A stretch of 12,043 nt of DNA from an uncultured archaeon. GTDB taxonomy: Archaea; Asgardarchaeota; Lokiarchaeia; Sigyniarchaeales; SOKP01. Position 1 is the stretch's first letter. Each line of letters starts with the position of its first letter. A model generated the notes under the pieces. The model searched no databases and had not been told where the DNA came from. It was given only the letters and a program-made list of their open reading frames with translations. Where the stretch lies: the NCBI GenBank assembly GCA_964508365.1, contig CAZDTP010000088.1, forward strand, positions 1 to 12,043, in the 5' to 3' direction. The position numbers and the translations under genes were made by a program. Shown piece after piece: positions 1 to 11,960 of the stretch.

Positions 1-394
1 TGTAAACAGGTGCTCCAGGGGTTGCCGGGTTGGAAACATTAATAATTGCCAAGCCAGATAAACCATCCGCTACGTACGCGAAATCTCCGCTCACGAAAAC
101 ACCCCATGCATACCCGGTTGTGTCTTCGTAGGTATACGGCCCAGGATTTGCTGGGTTGGCAATATAGATAATCCCCAACCCCGAATCAAAATCTGCTACA
201 TAGGCGTAATCTCCTCTCACGTAAACATCCATTGCCTCTCCCATCGTACTTTCGTAGGCGGGCGTTCCCGGGTTTGTCGGGTTGGAAACATCGATGACCG
301 CCAATCCCGAATAGCGATCTGCAACGTAGGCGTAATTCCCGCTCACGTAAACGCCATGTGCCTCTCCGGTCGTGTTTTCATAGATGGGCGTTCC
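1..394 (-). repeat. Coding tandem repeat, 126-bp/42-aa unit, 3 full copies plus a partial fourth
   Basis: Units at 394..269, 268..143, 142..17 and 16..1 align without gaps (shared YE.T.G.A..V.V.G..AYVAD..SGL..I...NP..PG). Confidence 0.88.
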
Positions 395-529
395 CATGTA
401 TATAGGATCGAGAATACTGCTAGCCGTCAACCTCGCTTGGGTAGGATTCTTCTCTTTACTTGGAATTAGGAAAATCATTGAAATTAGTAGAGTAATCAGC
501 ACGATATTTATCATTTTTGATCTTAGCAT
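1..529 (-). CDS. Secreted or membrane-anchored LVIVD-repeat (beta-propeller) protein, 5' part only; runs off the left edge
   Basis: Manual translation from ATG at 529: MLRSKMINIVLITLLISMIFLIPSKEK... (basic N-terminus plus hydrophobic stretch), then 42-aa repeats such as GTPIYENTTGEAHGVYVSGNYAYVADRYSGLAVIDVSNPTNP, matching the LVIVD pattern (V.V.G.YAYVAD...GL.IIDVSNP..P). No stop in 176 codons. Absent from the ORF track, presumably because the stop lies outside the window. Confidence 0.88.
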   Translation of the reverse strand, partial: MLRSKMINIVLITLLISMIFLIPSKEKNPTQARLTASSILDPIYMGTPIYENTTGEAHGVYVSGNYAYVADRYSGLAVIDVSNPTNPGTPAYESTMGEAMDVYVRGDYAYVADFDSGLGIIYIANPANPGPYTYEDTTGYAWGVFVSGDFAYVADGLSGLAIINVSNPATPGAPVY

Positions 530-617
530 TGATTCACACAACTCTCTTTATTTTTTTTCAAATGAATCTCACCAAAATTTTTGATTAAAAGTTATTAATT
601 AATTAGATCGTTTGTAA

Positions 618-647
618 TAAAAAGTCATAAGGACTAAAATTCTACAA
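618..647 (-). promoter_or_regulatory. Conserved 30-bp upstream element with TATA-like end, copy S1 (upstream of LVIVD gene)
   Basis: TTGTAGAATTTTAGTCCTTATGACTTTTTA; ungapped match to S2, S3, S4; ends 89 bp before the LVIVD ATG. Confidence 0.55.
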
Positions 648-690: not shown

Positions 691-714
691 GGGAGGATTT
701 CGCCCAAATCTCCC
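691..714. other. GC-rich bulged hairpin and short direct repeat in AT-rich intergenic DNA
   Basis: gggaggattt-cgccc-aaatctccc (9-bp stem, one bulged G); CCCAAATCT is tandemly repeated at 703..720. Confidence 0.35.
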
Positions 715-762: not shown

Positions 763-792
763 TATAAAATCACTAGGACTAAATTTATACAA
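763..792 (-). promoter_or_regulatory. Conserved 30-bp upstream element with TATA-like end, copy S2
   Basis: TTGTATAAATTTAGTCCTAGTGATTTTATA; same orientation as S1 and 145 bp upstream of it. Confidence 0.55.
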
Positions 793-867: not shown

Positions 868-2187
868 CTATTGCTTCTTTCTTTCGTTATTTTCGTCTAG
901 ATATTTCATTTCTTCATCTGAGATTTTTCCAATCTCATCTTTAAACTCCTCATAAAGCGTGGAGAATTCAGAAATAAACGAGAGGGGTGATTTTATCAAC
1001 TCAGTTTTAATAGCTTCATATTCTTCTTCGTCTGGAAATATTTTTCGAAGTTTGTTTTCTAGTTCTAACGGAATTTTTATGTATTTTCCTGTTAGAAAGA
1101 GCGGTTGTTTTTTGTTTTTAATGACCTTATAAGGGAAGTTTGAAAAATACTTTTCAATCAATTCGAATGCTGCATCGTATTGAGACATATCCTTAACCGA
1201 ATTTTTTAATTCTCGTTCAAATTTCATCTCAAAATCGTCAGTGAACTTAATTACAGAATCTCTTAACAATTTTGAAGTTTTTGAGGCGACTAAACCTACA
1301 GTTATATTTTTAGATTCTTTTAAGATCAAAATACCCTTTTCTAGATTTATATCTAAAAGACCACCAATATGCATTACTTCTTCGCTCATAAGCTGTACTG
1401 CATTTAAAAAGCCAGTGAAAATTGCTTCACTTATATTTGTATCAGACCAATCATGATCATACAAGGGTTGACCATCCCTATCTTTAACAACAATTCTATA
1501 GATTGTAAAGGGTAATATGTATAATAATTTTGGTTCTCTCGCAAGTGTAAATATAAAAATAAGAGAGCCTATCATAGTCATAAAACCAGATACTAATATT
1601 AGGAGTGTTTCAAAAAGATATAAAACATAAAATATAAGCCCTAAAGGACAAATGAATAAAATCCCTATAAAGAAAATATTAGCTTCCTTTTTTATTAAAA
1701 AAGGAGCATTCCTCCAAGTTTTTATACCCCAATAAAATAAATATAATATAGAGATACTAGTAAACAAAATTCCCATAATATTAAAGGATCCTGCCCAATC
1801 TACTCTCAGGTATCCCGCTTCCAAATCTATTCTAGTAGCACCAGGTTGCATACCGATGTAGATAAATAATGTACTTAGCCCACATATGACTAAAAGGCCT
1901 TTAGAATAAAATGTTTCTTTAATTGTATAGGTCACACCAATCGTTATACATATGGTCATGGGTATAAGAATTAATCCATCAAAAATAGAAATAAATTCAT
2001 TAATTAAAAGAATTGCTAAACCGTCAAATAAGATATATATCCAGAAGAAAATCCATCCTAGTCTAATAAAGAATAGTGATTTAATCTTCTTAGATTTTGG
2101 AGAATAATAGGAGATACTTAAAACAATTAAACCTAGAGCTACGATTATAAAATCAACAATAACCTCCATATTCCAATTTAAAACCAT
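868..2187 (-). CDS. 7-TM membrane protein fused to a C-terminal longin-like domain, copy 1 (439 aa)
   Basis: Seven hydrophobic segments in residues ~7-215 with basic inside loops. The soluble part (YRIVVKDRDGQPLY...IFTGFLNAVQLMSEEV...GILILKESKNITVGLVAS...FTDDFEMKF...FELIEKYF) has the beta-beta-alpha-beta-beta-beta-alpha-alpha pattern of longin folds. About 52% identical to 5711..7015 by manual count (227/434). Confidence 0.8.
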   Translation of the reverse strand: MVLNWNMEVIVDFIIVALGLIVLSISYYSPKSKKIKSLFFIRLGWIFFWIYILFDGLAILLINEFISIFDGLILIPMTICITIGVTYTIKETFYSKGLLVICGLSTLFIYIGMQPGATRIDLEAGYLRVDWAGSFNIMGILFTSISILYLFYWGIKTWRNAPFLIKKEANIFFIGILFICPLGLIFYVLYLFETLLILVSGFMTMIGSLIFIFTLAREPKLLYILPFTIYRIVVKDRDGQPLYDHDWSDTNISEAIFTGFLNAVQLMSEEVMHIGGLLDINLEKGILILKESKNITVGLVASKTSKLLRDSVIKFTDDFEMKFERELKNSVKDMSQYDAAFELIEKYFSNFPYKVIKNKKQPLFLTGKYIKIPLELENKLRKIFPDEEEYEAIKTELIKSPLSFISEFSTLYEEFKDEIGKISDEEMKYLDENNERKKQ

Positions 2188-2234: not shown

Positions 2235-3251
2235 TTATGTTGCATCGAGAATTTTAATAATATCTTCCTTTAAATCATTGTTTATGCACATTTCTCTGTC
2301 CAGATCTTGGTTTAAAGTAATTATACCATAATCTAATAAATTTTTTATGCGATAATATACATCTTCTCTCTTTTCATCAATTTTTTTATATATCTCTGAT
2401 TTGATGAAAGTATCATTCTCAATAAGCAAATGTATTATTTTGTTATTTATTCGATCTCTTAAGATGAAAAGGATTCTCCCAACATCCTCATCAAGTTCAA
2501 ATGGAAGAAGAACGGAGTAATGTCCAACTTTTATCTTTTTAACGTAATTAAATTTCAGAAGCATCTCCAAATGCCATACTAATTGTCCAGAACTCCCCGC
2601 TTCTTCTGATAAAGCTTTTTTTCTTATATTTGAAAAGTGTACTCCAGGGTTCATTCTTATATATCTGTAAATCCTATTTCTAACATGATTTGAAAGAACT
2701 GTTTCCCTTGAGAATTTTGAACCCTCAATCAATATTTTTTTATTTATTAAAAATTGTATTATGAATAAAAGACCATTTCTAGGTATTTTTAATCTTTTTT
2801 TTGCCGCGTTGTATAAAGTTTCCATATTCAATACTTTATTTTCACTTAAAAGTTCTTCAGCTATCTCTATAACGCTCTTTACAGTTGGATGTTCTAATCC
2901 GATTCCTTTAGTTAAAATCTGAAGTTTCATATTAGAGATAATTAATTGTATAGATAAATCTAAATGGGATATCTGATATACAATAATATATAAATCTTCT
3001 TTCAACTCGTTGAAAAGTTTTAAATAATCTGTTAATTTCCCTTTTGAAGCTTTTATAAATTTAAGTTTTATTAATTTTCTAATAATGGTGTTCTTTATAT
3101 TTCTATTAGAGAATTTATAAAGATTACTTTTTAGTAAAAATAAGTATAACTTATCTTTAAACAGAAATGATCTGGAATCTGGAGCATTAGAATTAGTCTT
3201 TAAATCATTTCTTAAATGATTCAACATAATAAGGAGGCTTCCACACATCAA
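2235..3251 (-). CDS. Multi-winged-helix transcriptional regulator (COG3398-like double wHTH plus N-terminal helical domains), copy 1
   Basis: R.RIY.YI..NPGVHFS.I...GSSGQLVWHLEMLLKFNYV followed by a second ArsR-like wHTH. About 55% identical to 4719..5669 from the shared Met (127/231, manual count). Start uncertain: 3251, 3227, or the conserved Met at 2930. Confidence 0.8.
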   Translation of the reverse strand: MMCGSLLIMLNHLRNDLKTNSNAPDSRSFLFKDKLYLFLLKSNLYKFSNRNIKNTIIRKLIKLKFIKASKGKLTDYLKLFNELKEDLYIIVYQISHLDLSIQLIISNMKLQILTKGIGLEHPTVKSVIEIAEELLSENKVLNMETLYNAAKKRLKIPRNGLLFIIQFLINKKILIEGSKFSRETVLSNHVRNRIYRYIRMNPGVHFSNIRKKALSEEAGSSGQLVWHLEMLLKFNYVKKIKVGHYSVLLPFELDEDVGRILFILRDRINNKIIHLLIENDTFIKSEIYKKIDEKREDVYYRIKNLLDYGIITLNQDLDREMCINNDLKEDIIKILDAT

Positions 3252-3285: not shown

Positions 3286-3315
3286 TATAAAATCATATAG
3301 ACCAAAATTCTACAA
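3286..3315 (-). promoter_or_regulatory. Conserved 30-bp upstream element with TATA-like end, copy S3 (upstream of regulator copy 1)
   Basis: TTGTAGAATTTTGGTCTATATGATTTTATA; ends 35 bp before the ATG at 3251. Confidence 0.6.
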
Positions 3316-3633: not shown

Positions 3634-4539
3634 ATGATTGAAAGATATTTTCAATTCTTAGGAGAAGATCAAACAATCCAACTATTAAAGGCAAATGAAA
3701 TTCCATTAACACCTTCAATAAGAGTTAATTTGCTAAAAATAGACGCGCAAACCTTAGAAAATAGACTAAACGGCAAAGGGTTTAAGTTAGAACCAATTGA
3801 TTGGATACATAATGGATTCAAAATTAGGAACTCTCCTTTAAATTTAGGATCAACTCACGAATATCTTCAAGGATTTTATTATATACAAGGTGTTGCTCCA
3901 ATGTTGCCTGCATTCATTCTTGACCCAAATCCAAGTGATGTTGTGATTGATATGTGCGCAGCTCCAGGTGGAAAAGCAACACACTTGGCACAAATCATGA
4001 ACAACAAGGGAAGTTTAATATTAATAGAAAGAAATAGAAATAGGATACCCGCTTTAGATTTTAATCTTCGAAGAATGGGTGTTTCCAATTCGATTGTTAT
4101 AAATGAGGATGCTGTGAATCTGTCAAAAATGAATTTGAAGGCAGATAAGATTTTATTAGACGCACCATGCACGGGAGAGGGATTAATTAGGCAAGATCCT
4201 AGTAGAAAAAGGAGTAAAACTATGAAAGATATCAATAAATTAAGCACGATTCAAAGAAAATTACTAAAAACTGGATTAAATTCCTTAAATCCCGGAGGAA
4301 AACTATTATATAGTACCTGTTCGATTGCACCAGAAGAAAACGAATTAGTTATAGATGATGTGCTAAAAGATAATTCAGACTTCGCTATTGTTAAGCTACC
4401 AAGAAAATACGGCATAGATGGAATAATTGAAGTTTATAATAAAATGCTTAGGGAAGATCTCAAATATTCTCAGAGACTTTATCCTCATATTCACAATACA
4501 ATTGGATTTTTCGTATGTTTAATTCAGCGGAAAAAATGA
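3634..4539 (+). CDS. nop2: NOL1/NOP2/Sun (RsmB/NSUN) family RNA m5C methyltransferase
   Basis: SAM-binding DMCAAPGGK, motif IV LLDAPCTGEG and motif VI YSTCSI (both catalytic Cys present), and C-terminal RLYPH.H.T.GFF. Homology probably extends upstream of 3634 (see findings). The symbol is family-level. Confidence 0.93.
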   Translation: MIERYFQFLGEDQTIQLLKANEIPLTPSIRVNLLKIDAQTLENRLNGKGFKLEPIDWIHNGFKIRNSPLNLGSTHEYLQGFYYIQGVAPMLPAFILDPNPSDVVIDMCAAPGGKATHLAQIMNNKGSLILIERNRNRIPALDFNLRRMGVSNSIVINEDAVNLSKMNLKADKILLDAPCTGEGLIRQDPSRKRSKTMKDINKLSTIQRKLLKTGLNSLNPGGKLLYSTCSIAPEENELVIDDVLKDNSDFAIVKLPRKYGIDGIIEVYNKMLREDLKYSQRLYPHIHNTIGFFVCLIQRKK

Positions 4540-4551
4540 TATAAAAATAAA

Positions 4552-4560
4552 TTTTTTTTT
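4552..4560 (+). terminator. Oligo-T tract, possible archaeal terminator of the methyltransferase
   Basis: T9 begins 13 nt after the stop; overlaps the 5' end of element S4. Confidence 0.3.
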
Positions 4561-4586
4561 AGAAATTTGGTCCTAATGTGTTTATA
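4557..4586 (+). promoter_or_regulatory. Conserved 30-bp upstream element with TATA-like end, copy S4 (upstream of regulator copy 2)
   Basis: TTTTAGAAATTTGGTCCTAATGTGTTTATA; ends 133 bp before the ATG at 4719. Confidence 0.6.
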
Positions 4587-4718
4587 TATCTCTATTTCTT
4601 AATCAACTTGAATTAATTCTTTTTACGATAGGTAAGAGAATTGGGTGGAATTCTGTGTTTTCTTCAATAAAAGATTTAATCCAAATTTTTCTTTCAACAT
4701 AATGTCATTTAATAAGAA

Positions 4719-5669
4719 ATGATGCTTCAAAGTGAAATAGTTTTTTATTTGTTAAGGTTCTATCTTTGTACTAAAAATAATAAAATTGAAAGAAGAAATA
4801 GTTTTAAAAAGCTAATAAAAGTTGAAATTTGGGGAGCTTCTTTTGGAACTTTTTCAAGATTTATAGAATTGTATTTTGAATTGAAACAGGAATCTAAAGA
4901 TAATGCAGATATTAATGAAAATTTGGTAATCTGGATTAAGATTGATAAAGATTGGGATATTATGAAAGAAAAAATTATTAATCCACCCTTAAATTTAGAA
5001 CATCCGAACGTACAGCGTGTTATCGCCATAGCAGAAGATATGATGAATCAGAGTAAGATTCTCACTATAGAAAGATTGTATAATGTTTCGAAAAAAACTT
5101 TAAAAATCCCCCGATCTGGTCTAATATCAATTATTCATTTTTTAATCAATAATAATGTGTTACTTGAAGGTTCAAAATTTTCAAGGGAAACAGTTCTTAT
5201 GAATCATTTTAGGAAAAACATCTTAGATTATATACGACTAAATTGTTGTCCTCACTTTTCAATTCTAAGAAAAGAGGTTTTATCCGAGCGAGATGGAAAT
5301 CTAGGAAGCTCTGGGCAATTAGTTTGGCATTTAGAGATGTTAATGAAATTTAATTATATAAAAAAAGTAAAAGTAGGAAATTTCACAGTGTTTCTACCCA
5401 TTGAGATGGAAGTTGAGTTAGGAATAATTAATTTTCTATTAAGAGATGAAATAAATAGGAAAATCGTAGAATTATTAACAACACAAATTTCAATTAAAAA
5501 TTCAGAAATTTTTAAATTAATAGATGAAAACCGAGGAAAAGTCAATTACAGACTAAAAAATTTAATTGACTACGATTTAATTTGCCTTAAAGAAGATTCA
5601 AATAAGGAAGTCTATTTAAATCCAGATAAACAAGAGGATGTTATCAATATATTAAATATATTCAAATAA
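4719..5669 (+). CDS. Multi-winged-helix transcriptional regulator (COG3398-like), copy 2
   Basis: Paralog of 2235..3251 with an identical putative recognition-helix segment GSSGQLVWHLEML and EGSKFSRETVL. Alternative start at the conserved Met 4962. Confidence 0.8.
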   Translation: MMLQSEIVFYLLRFYLCTKNNKIERRNSFKKLIKVEIWGASFGTFSRFIELYFELKQESKDNADINENLVIWIKIDKDWDIMKEKIINPPLNLEHPNVQRVIAIAEDMMNQSKILTIERLYNVSKKTLKIPRSGLISIIHFLINNNVLLEGSKFSRETVLMNHFRKNILDYIRLNCCPHFSILRKEVLSERDGNLGSSGQLVWHLEMLMKFNYIKKVKVGNFTVFLPIEMEVELGIINFLLRDEINRKIVELLTTQISIKNSEIFKLIDENRGKVNYRLKNLIDYDLICLKEDSNKEVYLNPDKQEDVINILNIFK

Positions 5670-5710
5670 CGTTTATAAAAAAGTTAATTTAAATTTGTGA
5701 GAACGGAAAA

Positions 5711-7015
5711 ATGGTATTAAATTGGACACCTGAAGTAATCGTTGAAATATTCACGAGTGCAATCATCCTATCTGCTACTGTATTAATGTACATTACACCG
5801 AGAACTAAGAAAATAAAATCTTTATTTTATATTAGATTAGGTCTTTTTTTTATGGGAATGCTCTTTGCATTAGACTTATTGGCAAATCTCTTTTTGAACA
5901 CATTACTTTCCCGGATTTGTGGTCTTATGTTATTTCCTAGTGCAGCGTTATTTGCGATTGGGATTAATTATACAATTAAAGAAACATATAATTCAATTTT
6001 CTTAATTATAGTAGCAGGGTTAGGTGTATTATATTGTTACCTTGCATTTCAACCTGGAGCTATCGGATTTGAATTTGAGGGAGGACATTTAAGTGTAAAT
6101 TGGATTGGATTGTATGAAGCGGTAGGTTCATTTTTTATATTCTTTGTTGGTAGCGCATCGTTTTATTGGGGTTTAAAAACGTGGTTGAATGCTCCATTTT
6201 TGATAAAAAGAGAAGCTCTTATATTTTTTATGGGTACCGTAATAAATGGACCATTAACTCTAATAATATACCTTTTTTACTATTGGAATCCAATTTTTAT
6301 TCTATTTGCTTACGCTACTACAGGTTTAGGAAATTTGATTGTTTGTATAGGAATATTGAAAGAGCCTAAACTCCTTTATATTTTACCATTTACCGTTAAT
6401 AGGATTGTTGTAAGAGATCGAGAAAGAAATCCATTATTCAGTCACGATTGGTCTCGTTCTAGCTTAAATGAATCAATTTTTATAGGATTTCTAAATGCAG
6501 TGCAACTTATGAGCGAAGAAGTTATAAATATGGGGCGGCTATTGGACATTAAATCAGAAGAAGGTATCCTTACATTATATAAATCTGAATTGATCTCAGT
6601 TGGTTTAGTTGCATCTAAATACTCTAAATTATTACGAGAGTGTGTTTTACAATTTACTCAAGATTTTGAGCAAAAATTTGAACGAGAGTTGAAAAAACAG
6701 GTTTGGGATATAGCCCAATATGAGGGTGCATTTGAATTAATTGAGAAATATTTTTCAAACTTTCCGTCTCATGTTATTTCTAGTAGAAACCAACCTCTAC
6801 TTTTATCAAGTAAATATGTGAAACGAGTAGGGGAATTAGATAATAAACTTAGAAAAATGTTCCCTGATGAGAAAGAATATGAAAATATAAGAAATGAGAT
6901 GCAGAAGTCCCCAATTGGCTTAGCATCTGACTTTTTTTCTCTCTACGGCGAGCTAAAAGGCGAAATTGATAAAATCGAAGATAAAAAAGTTGATCAGCTT
7001 GATCTGAAAGACTAA
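5711..7015 (+). CDS. 7-TM membrane protein fused to a C-terminal longin-like domain, copy 2 (434 aa)
   Basis: Colinear ungapped paralog of 868..2187 (shared MVLNW start, EPKLLYILPFT, GFLNAVQLMSEEV, AFELIEKYFSNFP); begins 41 nt after the regulator stop. Confidence 0.8.
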   Translation: MVLNWTPEVIVEIFTSAIILSATVLMYITPRTKKIKSLFYIRLGLFFMGMLFALDLLANLFLNTLLSRICGLMLFPSAALFAIGINYTIKETYNSIFLIIVAGLGVLYCYLAFQPGAIGFEFEGGHLSVNWIGLYEAVGSFFIFFVGSASFYWGLKTWLNAPFLIKREALIFFMGTVINGPLTLIIYLFYYWNPIFILFAYATTGLGNLIVCIGILKEPKLLYILPFTVNRIVVRDRERNPLFSHDWSRSSLNESIFIGFLNAVQLMSEEVINMGRLLDIKSEEGILTLYKSELISVGLVASKYSKLLRECVLQFTQDFEQKFERELKKQVWDIAQYEGAFELIEKYFSNFPSHVISSRNQPLLLSSKYVKRVGELDNKLRKMFPDEKEYENIRNEMQKSPIGLASDFFSLYGELKGEIDKIEDKKVDQLDLKD

Positions 7016-7032
7016 ACTGCATTAATAAACGC

Positions 7033-7614
7033 TTATTGTTTTCTCCTTAGATAATAACCTTTATCAGTTAAAATATTTGCAACTATATCTCCTTGATTGA
7101 GTAATTTATAATTAGTATAATCAATTTCTGAACGAGCAAGAGCTATAAGTTCTCTTGATTCATTTAAGACTAGCAGTATTGCATCTTTTTGTACGGCTGA
7201 TGGAATATTAAAGATCATCCTTTTTAATATCGGATTTCCATATAGAATTGCTTTCTCTCCTTTATTAGATATAATTAAAATATTTTGATCTGGAATTTTA
7301 TTTTCGTTTAAAAAGAATTCTGCTCCTTCCAAGCTTAAATGAAAAATTCCCTTCCTAATAAAACCAAAATAAACACCTGCTGAACACACGATTTCTACTT
7401 TAAGGATTTTTTCCAAAAGATTGCCTTGATCACGGGAAATTAAATAGATTGAAGGAAACTTGCTTTCAACTTCCAACCTATTTGAGGAAATGTATAATCT
7501 ATAGTCGTTTTTCTCTAAATAAGGTAATATTACGAGGGATAATTTTAAAAGTGAGTCTATAATAATTTTTTTTTCAATTTTATTAATAAGCCTAAATTTT
7601 ATTAAATCTCTCAT
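7033..7614 (-). CDS. nip7: NIP7/UPF0113 family ribosome-biogenesis protein with C-terminal PUA domain
   Basis: SAGVYFGFIRKG.FHLSLEG, GEKAILYG, LVLNES.ELIALA and terminal TDKGYYLR match archaeal Nip7-like proteins. Confidence 0.85.
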   Translation of the reverse strand: MRDLIKFRLINKIEKKIIIDSLLKLSLVILPYLEKNDYRLYISSNRLEVESKFPSIYLISRDQGNLLEKILKVEIVCSAGVYFGFIRKGIFHLSLEGAEFFLNENKIPDQNILIISNKGEKAILYGNPILKRMIFNIPSAVQKDAILLVLNESRELIALARSEIDYTNYKLLNQGDIVANILTDKGYYLRRKQ

Positions 7615-7690
7615 TCTCTAATAAAATAAAAAGAAATAAGTAGTTTTATAATTATTAATCATTAAAGTTATTAAAAAATAGTGTTGAAAA
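7615..7690. promoter_or_regulatory. 76-bp divergent promoter region shared by nip7 and vps22
   Basis: Divergent starts at 7614 and 7691; central TTTTATAA (7644..7651) preceded by a purine-rich tract. The AT-rich background lowers significance. Confidence 0.4.
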
Positions 7691-8407
7691 ATGGGCATTC
7701 GCAAAATCGAGGACGAAATAGATTTAAGAGAAGCCATGAAGAAAAAAGCAGCTGAGTTGAAGCTTATGGACATGGAAGCAAAAGCTGCAACAGAAAACTT
7801 TACAAAAGAAAGGCTTACAGAATTAGCTAAAACCCATGGAGTCATTTTGGCGTTAACTCCTGAATTAAAGAATGAAGTTAAAGCTTTACAAAAAAAGTTT
7901 AACATTCCATCGTCCAAAATAATTACTGAACAGATTACAGAAAACGATGTTTTAAAGAAATTTTCAAAAATAGACCATGAAAATTTGGGAATGCTTGCTT
8001 ACCAAAGAATCTTGATGCAGAAAGAAGAAATAGGAGTAGGGTTAACACCAATTTCTAGAATCTATGGATTAGTAAATACGGGGATCTTAAAAGGGATATT
8101 AGACATTAAAGATTTGTTAAAAGCTTTAAAATTACTCAAGAAAAATCATATTATCGATGATTTGCAAGAATTTGATTCCGGTATCGTAATGGTAAGATTT
8201 TTTCCCGTTCAATACACTACTGATCAAGTGAAAGTTGTAGGAGTTGCTAAAGAAAAGGGTTTTATTTCTCTTGAAGATGTATGTATTGCCCTAAACTGGT
8301 CTCAAGATCGAGCATCAGAGACTTTGAAGTCATTAGAAGACACAGGAGTGGCAAAATTGAGAGAATCTCTCTTAAAGGGAAAGCAATGGTACTTCCCCTC
8401 TTTATAA
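7691..8407 (+). CDS. vps22: ESCRT-II Vps22/Vps36-like (EAP30 domain) protein
   Basis: Aligns by eye with eukaryotic SNF8/Vps22: ERLTELAKTH..TPELK, DLLKALKLLKK, PVQYTTDQVKVVGVAKEKGFISLEDVCIALNWSQDRASETLKSLEDTGVA, WYFPSL. Confidence 0.9.
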   Translation: MGIRKIEDEIDLREAMKKKAAELKLMDMEAKAATENFTKERLTELAKTHGVILALTPELKNEVKALQKKFNIPSSKIITEQITENDVLKKFSKIDHENLGMLAYQRILMQKEEIGVGLTPISRIYGLVNTGILKGILDIKDLLKALKLLKKNHIIDDLQEFDSGIVMVRFFPVQYTTDQVKVVGVAKEKGFISLEDVCIALNWSQDRASETLKSLEDTGVAKLRESLLKGKQWYFPSL

Positions 8408-8412
8408 TTGAG

Positions 8413-9303
8413 TTATTCTATTTTTATTTTAAAAGAAACTTGATCATCATCTAGTCTAATAATCGTCCCCTTCTTATCTTTTTCTAACATTTTAAAAATT
8501 TTAATTATATCATCATTGGGAAGTTTACTAAACGCTCTATTAGATTCTCTAATTTCAAATATTAATATTGGCTCTAATGGAGAAATTTCCATGGCCCAAT
8601 CGTATATTTCTTCTGCCCAATTATCTAAACTCTTCCAATAAACTCTTAATTTCTCTTTACTTTTGGATAACCATTCAGCTTGTTCTTTATTAACTAGTTC
8701 TTCAGCAATTTCTTCTAAGGCTTGTTTTCGGTCTTCAAAATTAGAAAAGGGTTTTTCAGATTCAGTTTGCCGAAGATATAAAATATGAAGTATAGCATAC
8801 CGTGCGTAATCGAAAAGAACTTTAGACCATTCATTTTTCCAAGATTCGTAGTCTTTCAAGTCAGTTTTTCTATTTGGAATTGAATACATAAAGATATATC
8901 TTTTTTCTTCAAGCCACGGGTAATCGTTAAGTAACAATTCATAAGTTGATATTTCTTTAGTAACAGCCTCTCTCTCTTTTATTATTTCTAGCTCAATCTC
9001 TCGAAGTTCATTTTCAATTTGAGCGGCGTTTTGCTCGTAGGCTTTTTGGTCGATTTCTCCTAGTTTTGATGTAAGGATATCTTCAATTTTATTTAACCGT
9101 TCTTCAATTTCTTCACTTGGAAGCCCTTCTTGGATCGAATCTGAAACAATTTTCTCTGAATCAACTTCAATTTCTTTTAATTCCTTTTGTTTCTTTAGTT
9201 CTTTTAATCGAGCTAATTCCTTCCTTAAGCCATCTAATTCTCTTTCAGGTTTTTCTTTTGCCTCCTCAACAGCTTCTTTTGGTTTTTCTTTTTGACGTTC
9301 CAT
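8413..9303 (-). CDS. vps25: ESCRT-II Vps25-like protein with ~120-aa charged coiled-coil N-terminal extension
   Basis: WKNEWSKVLFDYAR and AEELVNKEQAEWLSKSKEKLRVYWKSLDNWAEEIYDWA match the Vps25 tandem winged helices (compare human LEWLDKSKSSFLIMWRRPEEWGKLIYQW). Confidence 0.9.
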   Translation of the reverse strand: MERQKEKPKEAVEEAKEKPERELDGLRKELARLKELKKQKELKEIEVDSEKIVSDSIQEGLPSEEIEERLNKIEDILTSKLGEIDQKAYEQNAAQIENELREIELEIIKEREAVTKEISTYELLLNDYPWLEEKRYIFMYSIPNRKTDLKDYESWKNEWSKVLFDYARYAILHILYLRQTESEKPFSNFEDRKQALEEIAEELVNKEQAEWLSKSKEKLRVYWKSLDNWAEEIYDWAMEISPLEPILIFEIRESNRAFSKLPNDDIIKIFKMLEKDKKGTIIRLDDDQVSFKIKIE

Positions 9304-9324
9304 AATCTACATCTTTAAAATTTT

Positions 9325-10542
9325 TTAAAATTCTCCGAATTCTTTAGCCCATTGCTCGTATTGACGTAAAGAAGAACCTGTAGTCATAGGTTTTACTTTT
9401 TTTAGAGTTTTAGTAAAGTCTTGTAAGTTAATATCCCTTACAATTACTTCTTTATCGGAATTTTCTAAGAGGCCTCCCATATCTAATTCCCGGATTGGAA
9501 GCATAATAACTTCACGACATACATTAGAGATGTCTCTTCCAGAATATCCATCAGATCTAACTCCTAACTCAATAAAATCTTCCTCGGGTATAGCCATATT
9601 AATTCCTGCGGTGTGAATCTTGAATATTCCAACTCTGGCTGGTAGATCTGGAAGAGGAACATACACTTTTTTTTCAAATCTACTAAGCATGGCAGTATCA
9701 ATATCCCAAGGTCGATTCGTTGCCCCTAAAACTAACAAAGGTTTTTTAGACCCTGATTTAATTCCTTGAATTTCGGCTAATAGTTGAGTTTTTACTCTCC
9801 TTTCTCCACCACCTTCATGACCTTCGCCTCTCTTAGTAGCCACAGAGTCAATTTCATCCATAAATATTAGACTAGGGGCTTTTATTCGAGCAACTTTAAA
9901 AAGAGAACTTATTAACTTTTCACTTTCTCCTAACCATTTGCTTAATAAGTCGGCTGACGAGACACTAAAAAAAGTTGCTTCACATTCTGTTGCTGCTGCC
10001 CTGGCTAGCAATGTTTTTCCACATCCTGGCGGCCCAAATAAAAGAATCCCTGACCATGGCTTTCTTGCTCCTTTGAATAAATTGGGTTTCATAATTGGCA
10101 AAACGATAGCTTCTCTTAAGGCTTGTTTGCTTCCATCTAAACCCGCGATGTCTATCCATTTCACATTAGGCGATTCAGTTAATATAGTTCCCGATATTGA
10201 ATCTATTATTTCTTGTTCCTCAGCAGTGTATTCTCCTTCTACCACAGCTGATTCGCCCTCTTTTGGTTCGCTTGGTTTACTGGATGGCTTTCCCCTTTTA
10301 GCACGAGGACCACTTAAGTGAGTTTTTAGTACGTTAGCACGATCTAAGTATTGTTCAATTTGTTCGTGACACTTTCTAATCATTATAGGATTTTTATTGT
10401 ATTGTACGAATTGTATTAAGATTTCAGCAGCTCGCTGATATTTATTTAGCGCTTGTCTATATTGACCATTTTCATCTAACGCAACTGCGGCTTGCGCTTC
10501 TTGTACAGCATATTGGTATAGTTTGCTATCAACACTACTCAA
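9325..10542 (-). CDS. vps4: Vps4 AAA+ ATPase with N-terminal MIT domain (TTG start)
   Basis: MIT-like helices (AQAAVALDENGQYRQALNKY), Walker A GPPGCGKT, pore loop SKWLGESEK, Walker B IFMDEID, RGEG..ERRVKTQLL, GATNRPWDID, C-terminal YEQWAKEFG. No eukaryotic beta-domain insertion. Sits upstream of and co-oriented with vps25. Confidence 0.93.
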   Translation of the reverse strand: MSSVDSKLYQYAVQEAQAAVALDENGQYRQALNKYQRAAEILIQFVQYNKNPIMIRKCHEQIEQYLDRANVLKTHLSGPRAKRGKPSSKPSEPKEGESAVVEGEYTAEEQEIIDSISGTILTESPNVKWIDIAGLDGSKQALREAIVLPIMKPNLFKGARKPWSGILLFGPPGCGKTLLARAAATECEATFFSVSSADLLSKWLGESEKLISSLFKVARIKAPSLIFMDEIDSVATKRGEGHEGGGERRVKTQLLAEIQGIKSGSKKPLLVLGATNRPWDIDTAMLSRFEKKVYVPLPDLPARVGIFKIHTAGINMAIPEEDFIELGVRSDGYSGRDISNVCREVIMLPIRELDMGGLLENSDKEVIVRDINLQDFTKTLKKVKPMTTGSSLRQYEQWAKEFGEF

Positions 10543-10639: not shown

Positions 10640-11960
10640 ATTTAATTGATAATATCAATCAGTATTATCAGACTCTGGTTTCCTTTAAATAAAGATAATT
10701 ATATTTAACTATTAACTTGAGATTATCTGAAACGATATACTTAAATTCTTCCGAACAAATTTCTAAATTGTGTCATTTAGCTAAGAATTTATTCAATTTA
10801 GCTAATTGGTATGTAAGACAAGATTTTTTTAAATTAAATAATTTCATAAATTACTACGATCTGGATTATGTATTAAAAGATAAACAAGCATATAGAAGAT
10901 TACCTTCTCAGACTTCTCAACAGATTCTAAAACTAGTCAATAGAAATTGGAGATCGTATTTTGGAGCATTAAAAGAATATAGAGCTAATCCTAATAAATT
11001 TAGAAAAAAGCCTAGAATTCCAAGCTATAAAAAGAAGAACGGAGAATATATCGTTGTTTTTTCAAACCAGCAGTGTAGAATTAGGGAGGGGTATCTACAC
11101 TTTCCAAAAAAAGTTAATCTCAAACTAGTGAAAACAAGAATTACTGAAAAACTAAAAGAAGTAAGGATTATTCCATTAGGGATAAAGTATAAAATAGAAA
11201 TAGTTTACGAAAAAGAAAAGCAGGATTTAGGATTAAATAAAAATGCGATGGTATCAATTGATTTAGGACTGAATAACCTTATAACTGCTGTAAATAATAT
11301 TGGGTTAGATCCAATTATTATTAAAGGTAAGATTATAAAATCCATAAATCAATATTACAACAAGCAATTAGCATATTATAGAAGTATCGAAAACAAGAAG
11401 AATAATTTTCAAGACACAAAAAGACTTCAAAAATTACATCTAAAGAGAAACAATAAAATAAACACCATCTTTCATAGAATTTCTAGATGTTTAATTGAGT
11501 ATTGCATCAAAAATAATCTTGGAACTATTATTATTGGATACAATGATGGTTGGAAGCAGAATATCAATTTGGGTAAAAAAAATAACCAGAACTTTGTTCA
11601 GATTCCATTCTTAAGGTTGATTAATCAAGTTAAATATAAATCAGAACTGATTGGAATTACGGTAATAACAGTTAACGAGAACCACACATCTAAGTGTAGT
11701 TTTCTCGATAATGAAGAGATTAGGCATCATAAGAAATATATAGGCAAAAGAATTAGTCGGGGTTTATTTAGAACTTCCAATGGCAGACTTATCAATGCCG
11801 ACATAAATGCAAGTTATAATATCATGAAAAAAGCATTCCCAAACGCCGTTTCGGTTGATAGGATAGAGGCATTCGGACTGATGCCACAAATAATGCAACA
11901 AAATATCGTTGATACTATTATTTGAAATAAAATGAGTATAGTTTTATTCATTTTGATGGT
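10640..11960 (+). mobile_element. IS200/IS605-superfamily TnpB-only (IS1341-like) element; ends approximate
   Basis: tnpB with no tnpA in the 174 bp upstream. Small inverted repeats at 10645..10670 and 11929..11954 could be subterminal hairpins. Exact ends not determined. Confidence 0.6.
10717..11925 (+). CDS. tnpB: TnpB RNA-guided endonuclease, rearranged RuvC-II type (TTG start)
   Basis: N-terminal AKNLFNLANW and LPSQTSQQ; RuvC-I SIDLG (D182); IIIGYN (G274 at the usual Glu position); E321 in VNENHTSKC; RuvC-III NAD (D362); family-typical KKAFPNA tail. Confidence 0.93.
   Translation: MRLSETIYLNSSEQISKLCHLAKNLFNLANWYVRQDFFKLNNFINYYDLDYVLKDKQAYRRLPSQTSQQILKLVNRNWRSYFGALKEYRANPNKFRKKPRIPSYKKKNGEYIVVFSNQQCRIREGYLHFPKKVNLKLVKTRITEKLKEVRIIPLGIKYKIEIVYEKEKQDLGLNKNAMVSIDLGLNNLITAVNNIGLDPIIIKGKIIKSINQYYNKQLAYYRSIENKKNNFQDTKRLQKLHLKRNNKINTIFHRISRCLIEYCIKNNLGTIIIGYNDGWKQNINLGKKNNQNFVQIPFLRLINQVKYKSELIGITVITVNENHTSKCSFLDNEEIRHHKKYIGKRISRGLFRTSNGRLINADINASYNIMKKAFPNAVSVDRIEAFGLMPQIMQQNIVDTII

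Follow-up and report, generated by a model that had tools for sequence, protein, structure and literature searches.

Longins count as hallmarks of membrane traffic in eukaryotes, and that Asgard archaea have so many of them is generally interpreted as pointing to proto-trafficking. Contig CAZDTP010000088.1 of an uncultured Asgard archaeon raises the question of what such a domain does at the end of a seven-transmembrane (7TM) protein, as encoded at positions 868 to 2,187. The window analysed here is this entire contig (C88; 12,043 bp), which forms part of a 4.07-Mb genome with a G+C content of 31.8%. An earlier note, made from the sequence of the window alone, had described the target protein as a receptor that signals directly through a longin domain, possibly to a small GTPase. 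We estimate at about even the chance that the receptor is instead a membrane sensor that works without a kinase and acts through a winged helix-turn-helix (wHTH) regulator encoded beside it, the two genes forming a signalling pair that occurs in Asgard archaea and mainly in Lokiarchaeia.

The open reading frame (ORF) of the target starts with ATG and encodes 439 amino acids (aa), and since the N-terminus MVLNW is kept in more than 400 homologues, this start codon is taken to be correct. Seven hydrophobic segments were distinguished in a hydropathy scan. AlphaFold2 modelling of the receptor alone, using an alignment of 83 sequences (A2; predicted local distance difference test (pLDDT) 88.1, predicted template modelling score (pTM) 0.79), placed seven transmembrane (TM) helices at residues 7-27, 36-61, 64-90, 96-113, 133-160, 163-189 and 196-217, with an extracellular beta-hairpin (residues 118-131) connecting TM4 and TM5. 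This model superseded one derived from the single sequence, which was unusable (pLDDT 43.6). Loops rich in lysine and arginine follow TM1 (SPKSKKIKS), TM3, TM5 (KTWRNAPFLIKKE) and TM7 (AREPK), so that an N-out/C-in topology is predicted. Neither a kinase nor a cyclase domain was detected in the target by Pfam, and no lysine occurs within TM7 (residues 196-217). Pfam likewise detected neither HisKA (DHp) nor HATPase_c in the target or in its neighbouring paralogue, receptor b; these domains are found in other paralogues only, for example on contig C63. Following the longin-like domain, the model shows a C-terminal tail with four helices within residues 374-438 (pLDDT 55-89). The helix count, the topology, the absence of a kinase, a cyclase and a retinal-binding lysine in TM7, and the helical tail of about 80 aa had all been proposed in the earlier note, and are borne out by these data. 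Conservation across the family is strongest in the longin domain and on the cytoplasmic face, where the loop KTWxNAPFLIKKEA and the linker EPKLLYILPF are conserved; on the extracellular side the N-terminus is conserved as MVLNW..E. Among 45 homologues, the invariant or near-invariant positions of the TM region are N4, W5, E8, R42, D55, P115, W153, G154 and T157.

The cytoplasmic domain has the element order beta-beta-alpha-beta-beta-beta-alpha-alpha between residues 229 and 348, with a five-stranded antiparallel sheet (DSSP assignment of the model: strands 229-236 and 241-246, helix 254-274, strands 277-282, 285-291 and 295-301, helices 306-328 and 334-348). Foldseek comparison of the model against the PDB returned zeta-COP as the top match (E 6.8e-4). 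AP sigma subunits, VAMP7 and roadblock/LAMTOR chains came next, with roadblock/LC7 chains appearing as weaker matches only. When superposed with VIA-align, the Sec22b longin (1ifq) ranked first of 991 chains (Z 14.7, root-mean-square deviation (rmsd) 2.6 A, 122/127 residues, model residues 228-352) and VAMP7 followed among the longins (Z 13.4); further longins that superposed on the domain were those of synbindin (Z 12.8), CPLANE (12.4), sedlin (11.7) and SRX (11.7). For this domain, an exhaustive fold search of 48,161 representative chains, which is independent of Foldseek, retrieved only longins among the 50 matches listed (VAMP7, SYBL1, Sec22, synbindin, CPLANE, AP-3 sigma/mu, sedlin, SRX and TRAPPII), and those 50 include neither a PAS or GAF fold nor a roadblock-permuted topology. 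The longin-like domain of about 120 aa that the earlier note had recognised, together with the longin matches it had expected of Foldseek on an AlphaFold model, was thus recovered, with seven TM helices rather than fewer than six and longins rather than a PAS or GAF fold among the matches listed. At the sequence level, no Pfam longin family matches the target, Fuz_longin_1 matches 2/83 family members (E about 1e-3), and copies of the domain in paralogues from the same genome have sub-threshold matches to Fuz_longin_1, Intu_longin_1 and Sybindin; the family alignment profile had chance matches only against the PDB sequences. By its predicted fold, the domain is a true longin, with a weak link in sequence. 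It shares fold and topology with the eukaryotic longins (Sec22b, VAMP7 and Ykt6; AP sigma and COPI zeta; sedlin and synbindin of TRAPP; Mon1, Ccz1 and CPLANE; SRX). However, the target domain follows a 7TM bundle, whereas those of eukaryotes precede a SNARE helix or sit in soluble complexes, and its genomic context comprises a transcription regulator and histidine kinases rather than GTPases or coats.

The role of this domain can be approached through the distribution of the family. A word-indexed search retrieved 408 homologues of the target, all 430-440 aa long and either unnamed or labelled 'hypothetical', from metagenome-assembled genomes of Promethearchaeota, Loki, Thor and Hod lineages. 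An exhaustive search distinguished 582 clusters at 50% identity, including a short form of ~355 aa which stops after the longin domain, and all named members are Asgard (Loki, Sigyn) save one labelled Bathyarchaeota. At a cut-off of E <= 1e-10, the 7TM-longin profile matched 260/300 sampled genomes of the phylum and 61/69 genera, although the profile may be only partly covered in the weaker matches. Most occurrences of the tailed long form are in the family to which the window belongs, and the short form occurs across the phylum. There are 14 matches to the profile in the window's own genome, which encodes three tailed copies and, in tandem on contig C13, two tail-less copies. In a 625-aa paralogue of this genome (C63:14123-16000), the 7TM-longin part is followed by HisKA and HATPase_c, and the same fusion was found in three further proteins or loci (P0205, P0226 and L132). 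In another Asgard genome, G284, a 7TM domain of the target's type is joined to PAS-HisKA-HATPase_c, with or without a receiver (REC); it matches positions 1-225 of the profile (E about 1e-41 to 1e-45), and the PAS domain (residues ~255-369) occupies the place equivalent to that of the longin (229-352) in other forms. The kinase fusions and this positional equivalence indicate that the TM domain is the sensor module and that the longin lies in the transmitter position; the longin is most likely the transmitter module of a modular 7TM sensor. No fused forms above 770 aa were found, which is weak evidence, the fusions of 598-676 aa having come from the search of representatives.

The variants of the target family (longin alone, longin with tail, longin with HisKA-HATPase, PAS with HisKA-HATPase with or without REC, and longin-tail-wHTH) resemble the known prokaryotic 7TM receptors (7TMR-DISM; HisKA_7TM, PF16927), which likewise combine one 7TM sensor with exchangeable cytoplasmic modules. 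We know of no member of 7TMR-DISM or HisKA_7TM with a longin module or with a separate wHTH output, and literature searches agree. These searches likewise returned no description of the 7TM-longin architecture, in keeping with the statement of the earlier note that no characterised protein of this kind was known to it. An Asgard cluster labelled 'class C GPCR' and '7TM proteins' are listed in a preprint of 2026, with details insufficient to identify the 7TM-longin family. Elsewhere in the window's genome (contigs C114, C65, C7, C47, C16, C18 and C5; L016-L023), the profile matches include a longin-like domain by itself at the end of otherwise unrelated membrane proteins, among which are two with several TM helices (547 and 741 aa) and one whose immunoglobulin-like ectodomain is followed by a single such helix; soluble proteins carry the domain as well. 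The longin-like domain is thus a mobile cytoplasmic module in this genome.

The output of the long form is suggested by its neighbour. The gene wHTH_a lies 47 nucleotides (nt) upstream of the target in the same orientation, and its product matches HTH_HVO_0163_N and HTH_20 in Pfam. The profile of the wHTH family retrieved Lrp/AsnC-type and AdcR regulators from the PDB, while HTH_24, HTH_5 and TrmB are the domains of its closest Atlas clusters. The protein resembles, in these profile comparisons, a triple winged-helix regulator of the ArsR/Lrp/TrmB-like DNA-binding type. Across 79 related long-form loci from Asgard genomes (together 890 kb), a co-oriented wHTH homologue adjoins the receptor gene in 72/79, almost always just upstream, with a position just downstream in L078 and L087. 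Each of the three tailed copies of the window's genome (3/3) has a wHTH gene immediately upstream, even the one on contig C91, which stands amid otherwise unrelated neighbours. No wHTH gene occurs within 4 kb of the tail-less short-form loci (0/20). In one protein of 676 aa (P0123, equivalent to L133 of genome G019), receptor, tail and wHTH core form a single chain, and this core shares 41% identity with wHTH_a (E 2e-52). The co-occurrence of the tail with the wHTH gene suggests that the tail may be the contact site for the wHTH protein. The wHTH_a protein also has a conserved basic N-terminal extension of ~100 aa (window 2904-3251, minus strand). In several relatives (L024, L033, L035, L037, L039, L041 and L043) this extension is a separate tblastn match upstream of the core, and may there belong to a small ORF of its own or reflect a change of frame.

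The earlier note had mentioned the adjacent wHTH gene in passing and had looked to a small GTPase as the receiver of the signal. The longin would then serve as a guanine nucleotide exchange factor (GEF), a GTPase-activating protein or a platform, by analogy with Mon1-Ccz1, TRAPP, Ragulator or SRX-SRbeta, amounting to a proto-form of the coupling of a G protein-coupled receptor (GPCR) to its G protein. The fold is that of a true longin, the families matched below threshold by the paralogous domains (Fuz_longin_1, Intu_longin_1, Sybindin) are longins of the GEF type, and about 60 Ras-superfamily GTPases are encoded in the genome. Around the target family itself, however, GTPase genes were found in 6/79 long-form loci, against about 14 expected from their density in the genome, and none is adjacent to the receptor gene; neither the window nor the contig of the third pair contains one. 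Among short-form loci 5/20 have a GTPase gene (about 3 expected), directly adjacent to the receptor gene in L121. The exchange of the longin for PAS, and its position ahead of HisKA in paralogues, also fit a transmitter better than an effector platform. The histidine-kinase fusions therefore favour the signalling role that the earlier note had assigned to the protein, whereas the GTPase output finds no support in the neighbourhood counts, and we consider it unlikely that the receptor signals to a small GTPase. Within the wider domain family, a 260-aa membrane protein with a longin-like domain (C26:13827-14609; L022:3828-4610:+) sits among three GTPase genes (C26:10473-10967, 11752-12246 and 15315-15788), which speaks for the GTPase proposal, and this protein may truly pair with GTPases.

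The kinship of the TM bundle bears on the nature of the sensor. Superposition with VIA-align, in which Z values of 13-14 are attainable between unrelated helical bundles, gave Z values of 12-14.4 with GPCRs, including mGlu5 (Z 14.4, 208 residues aligned, rmsd 3.6), GABA-B (Z 13.5), Ste2 (Z 13.2) and adhesion GPCRs, and values on par with these (Z 14.0-14.1, 194 residues aligned) with the ceramidase ACER3. The latter result would accommodate an enzyme or transporter, for instance a CREST/ceramidase-like hydrolase, to which the longin is a regulatory or oligomerisation appendage, and scores of ~13-14 are common among helical bundles in general. The His/Asp/Ser metal site of the CREST/alkaline ceramidase-PAQR proteins has no counterpart, as there is neither a histidine nor a metal-site residue among the invariant and near-invariant TM positions of the 45 homologues. 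Furthermore, this TM domain stands at the front of histidine kinases, where a sensor is normally located, and conservation is strongest in the longin and at the cytoplasmic side, so that an enzyme or transporter appears decidedly improbable.

Eukaryotic GPCRs of class C, class D (Ste2) and the adhesion type likewise have seven helices in N-out/C-in topology and a comparable arrangement of the bundle, at Z values that unrelated helical bundles also attain. Their sequence identity to the target is however 5-15%, and the likeness implies no heterotrimeric G protein. The class A motifs DRY (after TM3) and NPxxY (in TM7) are absent from the target sequence, which has a conserved NAPF in the loop after TM5, and no rhodopsin is among the fold matches listed. 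From the similarity of predicted folds it could be argued that the bundle is a true GPCR homologue whose longin couples directly to an Asgard small GTPase. This would make it an archaeal forerunner of receptor-to-G-protein signalling, located beside ESCRT (endosomal sorting complex required for transport) genes, and it is the least probable of the explanations considered, with very little likelihood in our estimate. Comparison with HisKA_7TM (PF16927) gave no Pfam match for the target, one weak match among the 83 family members, and a whole-length match of 18-21 bits, below the cut-off of 28.6, for the paralogue on C91. The nearest named ESM Atlas clusters carry PF16927 (scores 0.85-0.87; a lead only), and when A2 was compared by hhalign with the HisKA_7TM regions of six true Asgard members, the seven helices aligned in register with a probability of just 19% (E 0.0012). 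These weak, concordant and sub-threshold signs hint at a kinship with HisKA_7TM. The target is not demonstrably a member of HisKA_7TM, 7TMR-DISM, the GPCRs, the rhodopsins or the CREST hydrolases. True HisKA_7TM proteins (G014, G020, G025, G041 and G058; L103-L108) belong mostly to Asgard families without 7TM-longin profile matches (HisKA_7TM versus 7TM-longin in family f18, 3/5 vs 0/5 genomes; in f20, 1/1 vs 0/1), and the two sensor families may substitute for one another.

The non-coding DNA of the window contains a possible target of the regulator (Table 1). Four copies of an element with the consensus TTTGTAGAAWTTTRGTCCTAWTG, followed after about six bases by TTTATA, could be distinguished, all oriented toward the downstream gene. 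The degenerate 19-mer has these four copies and no further exact match in the 4.07-Mb genome, and when one mismatch is allowed two more matches appear, within the range of 1-5 given by chance. In relatives with the RsmB/ESCRT gene context, the element is found upstream of the wHTH gene in 21/37 loci and past the end of the receptor gene, at a distance of up to 450 nt, in 26/37. About 60 nt past the downstream copy c2 lies a short hairpin with a U-tract, which has no Rfam match and a folding energy no better than that of shuffled sequences (z 0.41); it may represent a small RNA or transcript, or a terminator. From its placement, the element is a candidate operator for the wHTH protein that would mark both the receptor operon and a downstream transcript, as fits a small autoregulated regulon. 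The two copies nearest the contig start precede the LVIVD-like gene (2-541), which itself contains three tandem 126-nt DNA copies (repeat family D1). Rfam and tRNA scans of the window gave no match.

Table 1. Coordinates of the genes, protein regions and non-coding elements of the 12,043-bp window
Feature	Position	Strand	Remarks
LVIVD-like repeat surface protein	2-541	-	runs off contig end
Promoter-like element, copy c1	626..644	-	upstream of LVIVD-like gene
Short hairpin GGGAGAUUU-GGGCG-AAAUCCUCCC with U-tract	691..714	-	between c2 and c1; conserved in relatives
Promoter-like element, copy c2	771..789	-	~80 nt past target stop codon, same orientation
Target receptor gene (paralogue a), 439-aa 7TM-longin-tail	868..2187	-	ORF, translation, homologues, AlphaFold2 model
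Helical C-terminal tail, aa 353-439 (87 aa), acidic	871..1131	-	candidate wHTH docking surface; model, long form only
Cytoplasmic longin-fold domain, aa 228-352	1132..1506	-	AlphaFold2 model, fold comparison
7TM sensor region, aa 1-217, predicted N-out/C-in	1537..2187	-	hydropathy and model
wHTH_a, 338 aa, multi-winged-helix ArsR/Lrp-like regulator	2235..3251	-	Pfam, conserved adjacency
Promoter-like element, copy c3, core TAKAAWTTTRGTCYNNRTG then TTTATA	3294..3312	-	upstream of wHTH_a
RsmB/F methyltransferase	3634-4539	+	
Promoter-like element, copy c4	4560..4578	+	upstream of wHTH_b
wHTH_b, paralogous partner gene, 316 aa	4719..5669	+	HTH_HVO_0163_N (sub-threshold), HTH_24; row in alignment A4
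Receptor b, paralogous 7TM-longin-tail, 434 aa	5711..7015	+	BLASTP to target
Nip7-like PUA protein	7033-7614	-	
EAP30 (Vps22/36)	7691-8407	+	
Vps25-like ESCRT-II subunit	8413-9303	-	
Vps4	9325-10542	-	
TnpB/OrfB gene	10717-11925	+	

The window contains a second pair, in which receptor b shares 53% identity with the target over 431 residues (BLASTP, E 3e-156). The order RsmB - wHTH - 7TM - PUA - EAP30 - Vps25 - Vps4 (window 3634-10542) is kept in about 30 Lokiarchaeial genomes. This conservation could be taken to mean that the pair belongs to an ESCRT or trafficking system, with the membrane protein as cargo receptor or anchor, the longin recruiting ESCRT-II/Vps4 or a coat, and the wHTH protein as an ESCRT-II-like module for protein-protein contact, the more so as ESCRT-II subunits consist of winged-helix domains and longins are eukaryotic trafficking modules. 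Housekeeping genes (RsmB and the Nip7-like PUA gene) however stand in between, gene orientations vary, and the short form occurs without such a context. In a tree of 81 copies, those in the RsmB/ESCRT context form derived clades (the target clustering with L024 and L067, and receptor b with L052), while copies at unrelated loci branch deeper; the basal clades and the third pair of the window's own genome are all at unrelated loci. The wHTH profile moreover matches DNA-binding regulators, and the histidine-kinase fusions indicate signalling. The synteny is therefore read as conserved gene order with local duplication and not as evidence of a common function, which leaves a trafficking role for the pair highly doubtful. 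Also against such a role, profile-profile comparison of the wHTH family with the ESCRT-II subunits by hhalign showed no specific kinship (probability 0.2% for EAP30 and 6% for Vps25). Within this region (7691-10542), the Vps25-like subunit carries a charged N-terminal extension of ~150 aa, and Vps4 consists of MIT, AAA and Vps4_C domains. The TnpB/OrfB gene, which is of the OrfB_IS605 type and encodes 402 aa, adjoins Vps4 near the contig end.

The two-gene sensor-regulator pair, which we prefer, can be outlined on the basis of the fold and topology, the modular fusions, the conserved adjacency, the wHTH fusion and the conserved element. The N-out/C-in bundle of seven helices would sense an extracellular or membrane cue, and the signal would travel via the cytoplasmic loop after TM5 and the linker after TM7 to the longin, which would act as transmitter where related histidine kinases have PAS. 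In the long form, longin and helical tail would together bind or release the presumably co-transcribed triple winged-helix regulator, which in turn may control a small regulon consisting of its own operon and the transcript just downstream of the receptor gene, through the common promoter-proximal element. Membrane sequestration of a DNA-binding regulator without phosphotransfer, as proposed for this pair, has parallels in PtsG-Mlc of E. coli, in PutA and in anti-sigma systems, although the proteins are unrelated to those considered here and, in contrast to those systems, the interaction is deduced from genes. New in the present analysis are the longin/PAS equivalence in kinase paralogues, the co-occurrence of tail and wHTH gene, the census of GTPase genes around the receptor loci and the finding that the promoter-like element is conserved.

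Several observations weigh against this scheme. The interaction of receptor and wHTH protein is deduced from gene adjacency, one fusion and tail co-occurrence, and the models cover the receptor alone. Only one instance of the fusion is available, a 676-aa protein that was found twice. Winged-helix domains are also capable of protein-protein contacts. The short form, which is spread across the phylum, has neither a wHTH partner nor a known output, and we know of no ligand for the receptor. The element is confined to the clade with the RsmB/ESCRT context and is not universal: pairs at other loci have it on the gene strand in 0-1/33, with a few on the opposite strand just upstream of the wHTH gene, and it could be a plain lineage-specific promoter.

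The longin fold described here is widespread, forms part of a modular sensor in the membrane, where it takes the position of PAS, and has a transcription regulator as its partner. Should the proposed reading be true, some of the longins counted as 'eukaryotic signature' proteins of Asgard archaea would be parts of signal transduction rather than of GTPase or vesicle machinery, and the longin gene counts used in models of eukaryogenesis would need rereading. Archaea would also possess a pathway by which a 7TM receptor reaches transcription without a kinase, and the GPCR-like bundle of this receptor bears on the origin of the 7TM receptors of eukaryotes.

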